Shown: positions 7,791 to 10,848, counted from the stretch's first letter. The stretch: 64,000 nucleotides of DNA from Patescibacteria group bacterium (GCA_004321885.1 SCQK01000004.1:1-64000); one strand, 5' to 3'. Numbers and translations: made by a program. Notes: generated by a model not told the origin, from the sequence alone.

Positions 7791-9989
7791 CTATTTCACA
7801 TACATCGTTTTCGCCGCGTTGTAGAGCTGTTTCACCTCGGCCGCCGACAGGGCGCGGTTGTACACGCGGACGTCGTCAATGGAGCCATTAAAATAAGCTA
7901 AATTAGAAGCTCTTCTTAACACGCCAATATCCATCGCTGTCGCGTCAACTATATCACCAAACCAATTTCCAGGATTTGCTACTTGATTTACAGTCATTGT
8001 TTGACTGATACCGTCAATATACGCGCTCCAAGCAGAACCATTAGAAATAAATACAACCTGGTGCCAATTTGTATCTTGATAAGAATTGCTGGGAGTAACA
8101 ACATCACCTTGTAGCGCTTGATTGACACGATTCCAAACTTCTAATCTTTTATTTGTTTTATCAAAATAAAAAACTAATTCATCATCATAAGAACCAGGTA
8201 CGGCAATGCTAAAAAGAGCTAAATCCGCAGACAAGCTGGCCATTTTTGTCCAGAATGCTACTGTTCCTTGTTGATTTGTTAAAAATGAGGGAGAAGTTTT
8301 TTCTATATAATCACTCGTCCCATTAAAACTCATCGCCCCGCTGATTTTCCCCGCCACTTTCGTGGGCGTGTTGGCCGAAGTGCCATGATTTCTATTGCCG
8401 CTTTTATCCCAGACATTTAATCCGCTTATATCCCCGCTGTCCATCGTCCAATACCCCACCAGCCCGCGGCGGGGGGCCGAGTTTGAGTACTTTTTTTTGA
8501 CCGCGTTGTAGAGCTGTTTCACCTCGGCCGCCGACAAGGCGCGGTTGTAGACGCGGACATCGTCAAATACAAAATCCGCTGGTTGTATGTAGCTGACCTC
8601 TTGAAAAATGCCAATCATAAAAAGATTGGCATCAGTCGCGTCATCAAACCATTGTCCAGAATTTGCGCCTGAATAAATGGTGAGCGGCAATGACATATTA
8701 TCAACATAAACGCTTATAGCAGAACCACTGGAAGTAAAAACAATATGATGCCAATTATTGTCGTTAATAGTATTATTGGGCGTCACCATATTCAACGTGA
8801 GGGCTCCATTTTGTGTTAAAATAATTTGAAAGGACTTTGAGCTGTCTCCTCTGTAATCCCAACGCAACGCATCATCAACTACTCCATTTGTCGCGATTGA
8901 GACAAATGTGCTAATAGCAGCATAAGCATTTGACCTTTTTGCCCAAAAAGAAATAGCGCCTTGCGAGTCATTTATAAAAGACGGATTGCTTTTGGTGATC
9001 CACTCCGTGCTCCCGTCAAAATTCAGCGCGTTGCCTATTTTCCCGGCCACGAGGTCGGCCGAGGTGATATTGGTGCCAGTGCCGTGGTTTTGCTGGCCGC
9101 TTTTGTCGTAGACTTTCGTGCCGTTTATATCCCCACTATCCATTGTCCACCACCCCACCAGTTGTTTGCGAACCGGGGCTTTGGTAAAGTTGCTTTTGGT
9201 GGCCTGGTATAGTTGTTTCACCTCGGCCGCCGACAGGGCGCGGTTGTACACGCGGACGTCATCAAGGGAGCCAGGGAAATATGAACCGCCATTTTCCACG
9301 CCTATTTGCAAATTTTTGCTGGAAGCAGCATTTCTGGCCGCCAACCCGCTTGCTGTGCCATCCTGCGCGCCGTTTACGTATACATAAGCATTATCGCCAT
9401 TTCTTACCGCTGCAACATGATACCATGTGTTTGCATTTAATGTAGTCGTCCCCGTGACATCAATACCACCTGAACCAACATAAAAAAGTAATTTTTGCCC
9501 CGCCCCCAAATTACGGGTATCAAATATAAACCCCATCTCACTTGCTCCGCCATTATTATATTTATCTAAAATTAAACTAATGGTGTTCCAAGTTGAGGCT
9601 TTTATCCACGCGGACAGCGTAAAATTTCCTGTCCCAAAATTAAATGACGCGCCTGGAGCTTGTAAGAACTGTGAAGAGCCGTTAAGATTCACAGCTTCCT
9701 TTATTTTCCCCGCCACAACGGTCGGACTGCCTGTTGAAGTAGCGTGATTCTTGTAACCTGATTTATCGTAATAGGTTATCCCACTCACATCCCCGCTATC
9801 CATCGTCCACCAGCCCACCAGCCCTTGGCGCGGGGCCGCGGCGTGGGCGACGTCTACCCCCCCTAGCCCCCCCTTATTAAGGGGGGGGAACGCAAAAAGC
9901 GCGCCCCAGAGAGCGACGCAAAAAACCGACAGCATTGTGGCTCCACGCACAGCATGGAGCCAGCGATTTTTGGAAGGTTTGCGAGACAT
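7791..9989 (-). CDS. secreted 3x LamG-module protein (LamG3)
   Basis: 732 aa. N-terminal hydrophobic segment, then AHAAAP, then three LamG modules each ending DDVRVYNRALSAAEVKQLY. The signal region carries an in-frame S-family hairpin (FPPLNKGGLGG). Confidence 0.85.
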   Translation of the reverse strand: MSRKPSKNRWLHAVRGATMLSVFCVALWGALFAFPPLNKGGLGGVDVAHAAAPRQGLVGWWTMDSGDVSGITYYDKSGYKNHATSTGSPTVVAGKIKEAVNLNGSSQFLQAPGASFNFGTGNFTLSAWIKASTWNTISLILDKYNNGGASEMGFIFDTRNLGAGQKLLFYVGSGGIDVTGTTTLNANTWYHVAAVRNGDNAYVYVNGAQDGTASGLAARNAASSKNLQIGVENGGSYFPGSLDDVRVYNRALSAAEVKQLYQATKSNFTKAPVRKQLVGWWTMDSGDINGTKVYDKSGQQNHGTGTNITSADLVAGKIGNALNFDGSTEWITKSNPSFINDSQGAISFWAKRSNAYAAISTFVSIATNGVVDDALRWDYRGDSSKSFQIILTQNGALTLNMVTPNNTINDNNWHHIVFTSSGSAISVYVDNMSLPLTIYSGANSGQWFDDATDANLFMIGIFQEVSYIQPADFVFDDVRVYNRALSAAEVKQLYNAVKKKYSNSAPRRGLVGYWTMDSGDISGLNVWDKSGNRNHGTSANTPTKVAGKISGAMSFNGTSDYIEKTSPSFLTNQQGTVAFWTKMASLSADLALFSIAVPGSYDDELVFYFDKTNKRLEVWNRVNQALQGDVVTPSNSYQDTNWHQVVFISNGSAWSAYIDGISQTMTVNQVANPGNWFGDIVDATAMDIGVLRRASNLAYFNGSIDDVRVYNRALSAAEVKQLYNAAKTMYVK
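9898..9989. repeat. 92-bp perfect direct repeat, left copy (LamG3 5' end)
   Basis: Checked base by base as identical to 10757..10848. Covers LamG3 codons 1-31. Confidence 0.95.
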
Positions 9990-10034
9990 ATCACGTAATT
10001 TGACAAAATCAGTTACTCATGTTATTCTATCTTT

Positions 10035-10146
10035 AGAAAACAACAGCTGAATACTTCCCTTCCGCAGTCATGTCTGCGGGGCGAAAGCTTGGAAGGTGTC
10101 CGCGAGGAATAGGCTGATCCCCCTTAAACGGGGGTTTTTGTTTTTT
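10035..10146 (+). ncRNA. DUF3800-associated small RNA, copy B
   Basis: Promoter: TTGACA 10000-10005, 17-nt spacer, TATTCT 10023-10028. Contains hairpin CCGCAG-TCATGT-CTGCGG and the CTTCC/GGAAG pairing. The 11-mer GTCCGCGAGGA (10098-10108) is shared with copy C. Terminator ATCCCCCTTAAACGGGGGTTTTTGTTTTTT ends 12 nt before the convergent DUF3800 stop. Confidence 0.55.
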
Positions 10147-10157
10147 ACACATTTTTA

Positions 10158-10718
10158 TTAAATTTGTTTCAAAATTCCTTTCACGCAAAATTCTTTATAT
10201 AAATCCGGGAATGGTTCTTCTTCCTCCGTTTTGTCCCTCATAAAACCGGCAATGGCATCCGCCAAACGAACAAAAACATCGCTTTCATCTCTGGCGCCTC
10301 TCACTTTCCGAACTTTTATTCTTAACTTTCGCAAACCGGCCGCGAATCTTCCTCTTTCTTCTCTTTTTAATCCATCCACCAAAACCGTCGCCGTGTACTC
10401 TTTTTCCGCCCTTTGAGAAATTGCTTTAGCCGTAGATAATATCGTCAAATCCACATACGCCTTTGAATCTTCATATTTTGAAAAGAACGCGCTATTTCTC
10501 AATAATCCGCTTCCCAAAATCAGCCGTAAGTACGAAATTCTGCTTCTTCTTCTCGCTTTTGACCATTTGTGGACTCCCTTTCCGCTCTCTTTTTCAATAT
10601 TTTTTAACTTTTCTTTTATCGCGTCACGCTCTTTTTCCAAAATTATCACGGAAACCAGAAATAATTTTCCTTCGGTATCTTGCCCTGTTTCATCCACATA
10701 ACAATAATACTTTTGCAT
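10158..10718 (-). CDS. DUF3800 family protein (copy B)
   Basis: Starts MQKYYCYVDETGQDTEGKLFLV and carries RGARDESDVFVRLADAIAG near the C-terminus. The track ORF's extra 32 N-terminal codons read out of frame through the duplicated LamG3 segment, so ATG 10718 is used. Confidence 0.75.
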   Translation of the reverse strand: MQKYYCYVDETGQDTEGKLFLVSVIILEKERDAIKEKLKNIEKESGKGVHKWSKARRRSRISYLRLILGSGLLRNSAFFSKYEDSKAYVDLTILSTAKAISQRAEKEYTATVLVDGLKREERGRFAAGLRKLRIKVRKVRGARDESDVFVRLADAIAGFMRDKTEEEEPFPDLYKEFCVKGILKQI

Positions 10719-10756
10719 ATCAGGACTATACCACCGAATTGCGTGAATGCCAAAAC

Positions 10757-10848
10757 AGCGCGCCCCAGAGAGCGACGCAAAAAACCGACAGCATTGTGGC
10801 TCCACGCACAGCATGGAGCCAGCGATTTTTGGAAGGTTTGCGAGACAT
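10757..10848. repeat. 92-bp perfect direct repeat, right copy (orphan LamG3 5' fragment)
   Basis: Identical to 9898..9989. Here the MSRKPSKNRW... frame runs into unrelated sequence and stops after 39 codons. Confidence 0.95.

Follow-up and report, generated by a model that had tools for sequence, protein, structure and literature searches.

A perfect 92-bp direct repeat of host sequence brackets a DUF3800-small RNA unit at the 5' end of a LamG gene in a Patescibacteria contig

The locus described here lies in a stretch of 64,000 nucleotides (the window) of an 86.7-kb contig from the metagenome-assembled genome of an uncultivated bacterium classified as 'Patescibacteria group bacterium' (GCA_004321885.1, SCQK01000004.1:1-64000; proteins TAN340xx). 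In it, a gene with a DUF3800 domain and a small RNA (DUF3800 B and small RNA B, together cassette B) stand between two copies of the 5' end of LamG3, a LamG gene that comes after a 122-aa gene in an operon of surface-protein genes. The protein genes at the locus are all on the minus strand and follow each other in the order 659-aa gene, 122-aa gene, spacer, distal repeat copy, DUF3800 B and proximal copy with LamG3, while the plus-strand small RNA B sits between DUF3800 B and the proximal copy (Table 1). In the NCBI annotation LamG3, DUF3800 B and the 122-aa gene are TAN34011-13; LamG3 is TAN34011.1, with the same start as ours, and DUF3800 B is TAN34012.1. An earlier note, made from the sequence alone, had drawn attention to the repeat and proposed an origin and a consequence for it, which are examined below together with the nature of the bracketed unit.

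Table 1. Features of the cassette B locus (positions in the window).
Feature	Position	Strand	Remarks
LamG3	7791-9989	-	intact, 732 aa, three Laminin_G_3 domains; ATG at 9989
Proximal repeat copy	9898-9989	-	first 92 nt of intact LamG3, start codon to codon 31
R-family hairpin unit, REP-like	9928-9966 (proximal), 10787-10825 (distal)	-	35/39 identical to 4228-4266
Putative inserted module, 767 bp	9990-10756		DUF3800 B and small RNA B; left-most 4-8 nt may be host DNA (TGAT before ATG)
Small RNA B promoter-like site	10000-10028	+	TTGACA, 17 nt, TATTCT, TG upstream; 10/12 matches
Small RNA B	10042-10140	+	convergent with DUF3800 B; three-way-junction-like fold; intrinsic terminator 10119-10146
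DUF3800 B, 186 aa	10158-10718	-	Pfam PF12686, E = 8.5e-6, 27.0 bits against a cut-off of 21
DUF3800 B promoter-like site	10725-10753	-	TTGGCA, 17 nt, TATAGT, TG upstream; 10/12 matches
Stub open reading frame	10726-10848	-	MSRKPSKNRWLHAVRGATMLSVFCVALWGALFWHSRNSVV, then stop; 40 codons; not annotated at NCBI
Distal repeat copy	10757-10848	-	preceded by 54-nt native spacer after 122-aa gene; ATG at 10848
Native spacer, 54 nt	10849-10902	-	between 122-aa gene and distal start codon
122-aa gene	10903-11271	-	upstream operon gene, next after 659-aa gene
659-aa gene	11346-13325	-	upstream operon gene

A base-by-base check agrees with the note that the two copies are identical throughout (92/92 positions). 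The window contains no exact repeat that is longer; the following ones, of 83, 76, 67 and 65 nt, all belong to the cluster of LamG genes and R-family units. The length of the exact match in 64 kb excludes a chance origin, the arithmetical expectation for such a 92-nt pair being about 1e-46. A mismatch bounds the match on both sides: at the left edge it is followed by three matching A's, which gives a 96-nt match with one mismatch, and the similarity of the right flanks is not significant (35 of 500 shuffles score equally well). Homology longer than the 92-mer was rejected on these non-significant flank alignments. The repeat is made of host DNA belonging to the 5' end of LamG3, as the note held, and comprises 23 nt from the ATG, a 39-nt R-family unit and 30 further nt; it encodes a charged and then a hydrophobic stretch, which form most of a signal-anchor sequence. 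Its GC content of 56.5% is host-like (49.4% for the window) and it folds as a strong hairpin (z = -3.3) placed centrally in the 92-mer. The R-family unit, previously taken for a partial one, is a complete short variant. Units of this family are dispersed, imperfectly palindromic and present in many copies (GGCTCCA...TGGAGCC at 1702, 1764, 4228, 4304, 7684, 7746, 26349, 36361 and 36452), like repetitive extragenic palindromes (REP) and bacterial interspersed mosaic elements. Outside the R-unit core no other copy of the 92-mer, even diverged, was found in the window; the N-terminus that it encodes has no homolog among 5.8 billion proteins, and the 92-mer was not found in IMG/VR.

The note was also right that the distal copy keeps the upstream leader and that the proximal copy begins the intact LamG3 open reading frame (ORF). 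In Magasanikbacteria relatives (about 52% identity), a 657-aa and a 125-aa gene are followed after 43-52 nt by the next gene, without DUF3800, and from this spacing the distal ATG stands at the expected start of the next operon gene. The LVIVD protein encoded after the 125-aa gene in these relatives seemed by eye to resemble LamG3 at the N-terminus, but BLASTP gave no alignment and the idea was dropped. The distal copy now opens a stub ORF of 40 sense codons (39 in the earlier count), whose stop codon falls inside the -10 box of DUF3800 B, 7 nt before its ATG. Independent support for the repeat came from a Logan contig assembled at k=31 (SRR8426592), which is 100% identical to 10819-13676 and ends exactly 30 nt (k-1) inside the distal copy. 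Such an end is what a branch at the first base of the repeat would give, with two different upstream neighbours in the reads. Exact-protein look-ups with DUF3800 B (forms of 186, 208 and 218 aa) and LamG3 returned nothing, and the neighbouring genes were found on one Logan contig only.

The 767 bp between the copies hold exactly DUF3800 B and small RNA B, as described earlier, the former recognised by its Pfam match and the latter as a convergent plus-strand RNA. Their composition is foreign: the GC content of 39.9% is at the 3rd percentile of 767-bp windows, which is consistent with a recent arrival. The unit is sharply delimited, with the -35 boxes at its two ends lying 3 nt (DUF3800 side) and 10 nt (RNA side) from the repeat. 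Terminal inverted repeats are missing, no inverted pair being present between 9990-10030 and 10720-10756; the sole ORF of the 767 bp is DUF3800, which matches no transposase family, and neither a tyrosine or serine recombinase nor any replication or integration function was found there. Transposons and insertion sequences make short target duplications, of about 2-15 bp. The argument that 92 bp is too long for a transposase target duplication therefore stands, and it is joined by the lack of inverted repeats, transposase and integrase. Relatives of DUF3800 B are absent from PLSDB plasmids, GenBank phages and IMG/VR. Nine IMG/VR matches to the RNA-core pattern were put down to chance, the covariance model being negative on all of them.

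In a 55-sequence alignment the invariant residues D9, E10, E42, D115 and D154 are kept in DUF3800 B, and its AlphaFold2 model has a predicted local distance difference test (pLDDT) score of 91.9. The closest solved folds in Foldseek are archaeal RNase HII (1eke/1uax/1x1p; E 9e-6 to 2e-4, TM 0.56-0.59), retroviral integrase cores ranking below them (TM about 0.4); a sequence search against solved structures gave no meaningful match. DUF3800 B is thus predicted from the model to be a nuclease with an RNase HII-like fold, in agreement with the RNase H2-like fold given for DUF3800 in the literature (PMC7736814, PMC10910872). In PADLOC it weakly matches DUF3800_VII and PDC-M04A (E about 2e-3). DUF3800 domains serve as effectors or accessories in retron type VII and in Cas12a2/Cas12a3/Cas13-associated loci (PMC7736814, PMC10910872, PMC13594972). 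DUF3800 B shares with these the Pfam domain, the RNase H2-like fold and the N-terminal DE motif, and they too associate with non-coding RNA and with defence contexts; unlike them, it is a stand-alone protein of 186 aa without reverse transcriptase, TPR domain or Cas partner.

RNAs of the same type are found in the same position, downstream of DUF3800, at seven other loci (L011, at 4580-4690 on the minus strand, L021, L031, L033, L034, L040 and L046), beside DUF3800 proteins 51-62% identical to DUF3800 B. RNAalifold on the 8-sequence alignment gives 22 pairs, 7 of them with compensatory changes. The conserved elements are a closing stem (CAGCY/GGCUG), the junction strands GAAUAC and AUAG, a covarying hairpin and a terminator; a TTGACA box stands at the equivalent site in 6 of the 7 related loci, the place being taken in L046 by a palindromic insert. 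A covariance model built from this RNA type scores 65.6 bits on RNA B and 14.8 bits on the RNA of cassette A, another DUF3800 cassette of the window. The association itself is familiar: DUF3800-associated RNA motifs (Weinberg et al. 2017, PMC5737381; e.g. RF02961) combine the same gene with an adjoining conserved structured RNA that ends in an intrinsic terminator, and the literature on them describes the association only, neither a function nor evidence on movement. Likewise at our locus a PF12686 protein above the gathering score lies next to a covarying RNA. In contrast to the Rfam motifs, neither RNA B nor any of its seven relatives matches an Rfam 15 model, DUF3800 families included, even at E = 10. 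The sole RNA of the window to pass is that of cassette C (61251-61314), a true DUF3800-II (RF02961) match with 67 bits, which has in common with RNA B the P3 hairpin sequence GUCCGCGAGGA, the closing stem and two hairpins. From these comparisons the RNA B type appears to be absent from Rfam and to resemble DUF3800-II in architecture.

The convergent DUF3800/RNA pair is present in at least 7 other genomes, in unrelated neighbourhoods (MFP/MacB, MurB/SecA, HigB/YchF, atpA, and an island with an integrase and restriction-modification genes), and each identical DUF3800 protein is found in one context only. These contexts, mostly housekeeping operons, fit a small foreign unit that inserts; they do not reveal its vehicle. 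Bracketing repeats of at least 14 nt occur in 2 of 10 distinct contexts, namely the 92-nt repeat of the window and a direct repeat in L033 (41/42 identical; 117-158 and 1055-1096, 938 bp apart), which brackets a DUF3800-RNA unit and corresponds to the CAAT-rich leader of the downstream gene for a 23S-rRNA-IVS protein. With only two such contexts, bracketing repeats were rejected as a general mark of DUF3800 insertions. We also considered small RNA B as a guide to its target. Its complementarity to the reconstructed empty site is marginal (17-43 of 1000 shuffles do as well, p about 0.02-0.04) and partly due to G/C hairpins, and there is none at L033; this candidate was dropped. A separate observation concerns L046, L047 and L049. 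There, directly upstream of the small RNA and about 60-200 nt past the stop codon of DUF3800 (on the minus strand of the locus), a palindrome of some 54 nt stands between two direct copies of the 24-nt sequence GGCCGGAGTCTCGCTCCAACTTGG, an arrangement that resembles a miniature insertion with a long target duplication.

The locus carries the fresh scar of a rearrangement around a DUF3800-RNA unit that was newly acquired, and does not represent a new class of element. As to how it arose, we tentatively favour a recent event in which host recombination or repair inserted a horizontally acquired module of about 0.76 kb into the 5' end of LamG3 and duplicated the 92-bp target. In such an event the host machinery, with no transposase or integrase encoded by the element, would make two joints 92 bp apart on the target and so leave the target segment on both sides of the insert. 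A staggered break could account for the offset of the joints, and so could a template switch during replication with return to a site behind the point of departure; the central hairpin of the 92-mer may explain why DNA broke or replication stalled here. Only products with a whole LamG3 would persist, the proximal copy restoring the complete ORF; selection for an intact LamG3 would thus imply a duplicated piece reaching at least the ATG. The distal copy would be left as the short operon-driven stub, and the newcomer DUF3800 would also be expressible from host signals. One-step insertion needs a single event and accounts for the perfect identity. Tandem-duplication schemes (with an R-C or a C-R unit) were rejected, as they predict two copies of the insert.

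Among known processes, illegitimate or microhomology-mediated insertion of foreign DNA is close to such an event. It includes double illegitimate and homology-facilitated recombination in naturally transformable bacteria, and template-switch insertions; we know of no demonstration of it in bacteria of the candidate phyla radiation (CPR). The locus resembles its products: the segment is foreign, carries no mobility genes and is joined sharply, without inverted repeats, and host sequence is duplicated under the reading that we favour, or deleted if a paralog was replaced (see below). It differs in that clear microhomology is visible at neither joint. A second comparison is with attachment-site (attL/attR) duplications, which arise when phages and integrative and conjugative elements insert into tRNA genes and rebuild the target gene. 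Here as well, direct repeats of tens of bp of a host gene flank the insert at both ends, one copy completing the target gene and the other being a displaced fragment. Unlike such elements, the module has no integrase and only 767 bp, and its target is the 5' end of a protein gene instead of the 3' end of a tRNA gene.

Several points weigh against a one-step duplicative insertion. (i), the boundary of the repeat falls exactly at the LamG3 start codon, a coincidence under a random break unless the shortest gene-keeping duplication was favoured. (ii), the TGAT before the proximal ATG recurs at five other sites of the LamG cluster and hints at the native end of a preceding gene. (iii), the cluster holds other long exact repeats, so that identity alone is no proof of a fresh duplication. 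(iv), 8 of the 10 distinct DUF3800 contexts have no bracketing repeat of at least 14 nt. (v), an empty site, a circular junction and read-level support were not obtained: genome and metagenome scans with the 659-aa protein yielded distant relatives only (41-66% identical), and no DUF3800 module was present in the two where the downstream sequence was read (L002, L003). The third point also touches the earlier argument that zero divergence makes the event recent. Identity is no sure sign of recency, as gene conversion or paralogy can also yield it within the LamG cluster, and this part of the argument is weakened; the low GC content of the insert does fit a recent arrival.

The second and third points bear directly on an origin that the note had left out. 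The module may have replaced the body of an upstream paralog, 'LamG4', from codon 32 almost to its stop, the distal 92-mer being the surviving 5' stub and no duplication having been made by the insertion itself; for this, a recent duplication or gene conversion would have to have given LamG4 and LamG3 the same 5' end. The LamG cluster does hold several such stubs. At 3893, 4199, 4360, 5216 and 7655 the remnant of a LamG 3' end runs directly into an ATG stub by way of a 'stop + T + ATG' junction, and the prefix of the proximal copy (TGAT|ATG, at 9993) matches these many scars, TGAT preceding only 1.5% of the ATGs in the window; the distal copy has TTGC|ATG. From its sequence the cluster looks like a decaying head-to-tail array in which R-family units mark deletion scars. 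A replaced paralog would explain why the identity ends exactly at the ATG, the exact repeats of 65-83 nt between paralogs would reflect ongoing homogenisation, and the gene families at the two bracketed loci, LamG at cassette B and the 23S-rRNA-IVS protein at L033, often have several copies. Against this, a replaced paralog demands 92/92 identity where paralogs are otherwise 60-90% alike, at least two events in place of one, and an endpoint of the replacement that, in about 2 kb, falls no further than 4-10 nt from the LamG3 ATG. Moreover, the window has no further 92-mer outside the R-unit core, and the encoded N-terminus is without homolog in the protein collection searched. The TACGTGA before the proximal ATG, tried as a remnant of a LamG 3' end, is a 7-mer match that is not significant (10.8% of random 12-mers do equally well). 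On balance we regard replacement of a paralog as less likely than a one-step insertion, but as a serious rival to it.

Two further observations were made in the same cluster. 'Ghost' LamG genes lie on the minus strand at 3885-4360 and 7649-7790, where ATG stubs (ATGACCAAAAAATT...) and 3'-end fragments (...ATGTACGTGAAATGA) are joined by R-family hairpin units, with the recurrent 'stop + T + ATG' junction. The LamG2 ORF (5309-7651, minus strand) overlaps a tRNA-Arg(CCG) gene (7514-7587, plus strand), and its native ATG region is deleted relative to LamG1, so that translation probably begins further downstream than the start that is listed.

One proposal of the note was that a circle with a copy of the target in it had integrated in the Campbell manner. 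An 859-bp circle, made of the module and one 92-mer, would enter and leave by RecA-type recombination, or the contig would merge an empty chromosome with the circle. A single crossover between circle and chromosome would give exactly this topology, direct repeats of 92 bp at a distance of 767 bp do recombine, and in a de Bruijn graph the integrated form looks the same as an empty site together with a circle, the Logan contig showing no more than a branch at the repeat edge. As an origin, however, the proposal does not hold: a circle with a copy of the target derives only from a locus already built in this way, so that the first gain of host sequence is left unexplained, the integrated form is presupposed, and only a later pop-out and re-entry are described. 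Nor do the 767 bp carry a replication or integration function, and the searches of IMG/VR (92-mer and DUF3800 B relatives) and of the plasmid and phage collections (DUF3800 B relatives) were negative. We consider such exchange improbable.

An assembly artefact is very unlikely. The contig comes from a metagenome-assembled genome and perfect short repeats are classic sites of misassembly, and a repeat-induced misjoin could in principle have been made here. A loop could, however, be assembled only if the reads contained both novel junctions; a different assembler, run at k=31, breaks off exactly k-1 nt inside the repeat, as it would at a true second context; and the product is coherent, with a whole LamG3 ORF and a complete module that ends at its promoters. 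The break at the repeat edge and this coherence are the grounds for the low rating.

We give scarcely any credence to an insertion driven by the element, in which DUF3800-RNA units would be (semi-)autonomous mobile cassettes whose nuclease and RNA catalyse or guide their own integration at hairpin targets with duplications of 40-90 bp: RNase H-fold enzymes do include transposases and integrases, the minimal module is found at many unrelated sites and long repeats bracket two of the ten contexts, but the nearest fold is RNase HII and not integrase, the insert has neither conserved ends nor inverted repeats, RNA/target complementarity is marginal in the window and absent in L033, each identical protein has a single context and the remaining eight contexts are not bracketed. 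If true, it would explain the link of the domain to at least 11 unrelated RNA structures and its scatter through housekeeping operons.

The note also expected LamG3 to be uncoupled from its original promoter, but neither this nor a loss of LamG3 transcription is demonstrated by the sequence. Between the stop codon of DUF3800 B and the start of LamG3, the one terminator-like site is that of the small RNA, on the plus strand, so that read-through into LamG3 from the operon or from the DUF3800 promoter is possible; on the minus strand, weak sites of this kind are present in both copies of the repeat and within the DUF3800 gene. In the same way, given the place of the stub stop inside the -10 box and just before the DUF3800 ATG, transcripts of the operon could feed translation of DUF3800. 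Homologous recombination between the two identical copies could now release an 859-bp circle, and the locus may be unstable, as it could revert in this way. The module probably works as a nuclease paired with an RNA, in the manner of toxin-antitoxin or defence systems. Its convergent layout and predicted nuclease fold are compatible with an RNA-antitoxin system (type I/III-like), and such a role in toxin-antitoxin or defence would oppose loss of the module through recombination at the repeat.

Taken alone, the repeat is no more than an ordinary scar of rearrangement, in a cluster of paralogs that is highly recombinogenic; the main value of the locus lies in the precise limits that it sets to the unit and in an RNA type not yet in Rfam. 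If the insertion is recent, the unit is naturally delimited, at 767 bp from promoter to promoter with host sequence on both sides, and offers a ready minimal construct for probing the widespread DUF3800 nuclease/RNA pairs. It would then suggest that these units spread as discrete two-gene pieces without mobility genes, and illustrate a route of gene gain in CPR bacteria by which a gene is added inside an operon while the interrupted gene is kept intact.

Some minor features of the window may be mentioned. A second kind of small unit is made up of promoter, hairpin RNA (GGCUUUCGGC...GCGGAAAGUCC) and U-tract. It is present in two homologous copies (1425-1525 and 60962-61066, both on the plus strand), which adjoin cassettes A and C, with none beside cassette B; neither matches Rfam. 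The N-terminal part of an IS481-family transposase (1-540, minus strand), cut by the edge of the window, lies about 110 nt from the small-RNA promoter of cassette A. Directly upstream of DUF3800 C, a minus-strand gene (61882-62751) stops 3 nt before the DUF3800 C ATG; its product has weak macro-domain/ThsA-like matches in PADLOC (E about 1e-3), and cassette C may be a two-protein unit. G/C-rich palindromes of the form CCCC(C)TTATTAAGGGG(G) occur inside coding sequence at 9866-9887, 11317-11340, 12711-12736 and 12765-12790, including the N-terminal region of LamG3 and, twice, the 659-aa gene, and resemble the terminator stem of the DUF3800 small RNA. Finally, a tRNA-Ile gene with the anticodon UAU, uncommon in bacteria, is found at 23838-23911 on the plus strand.

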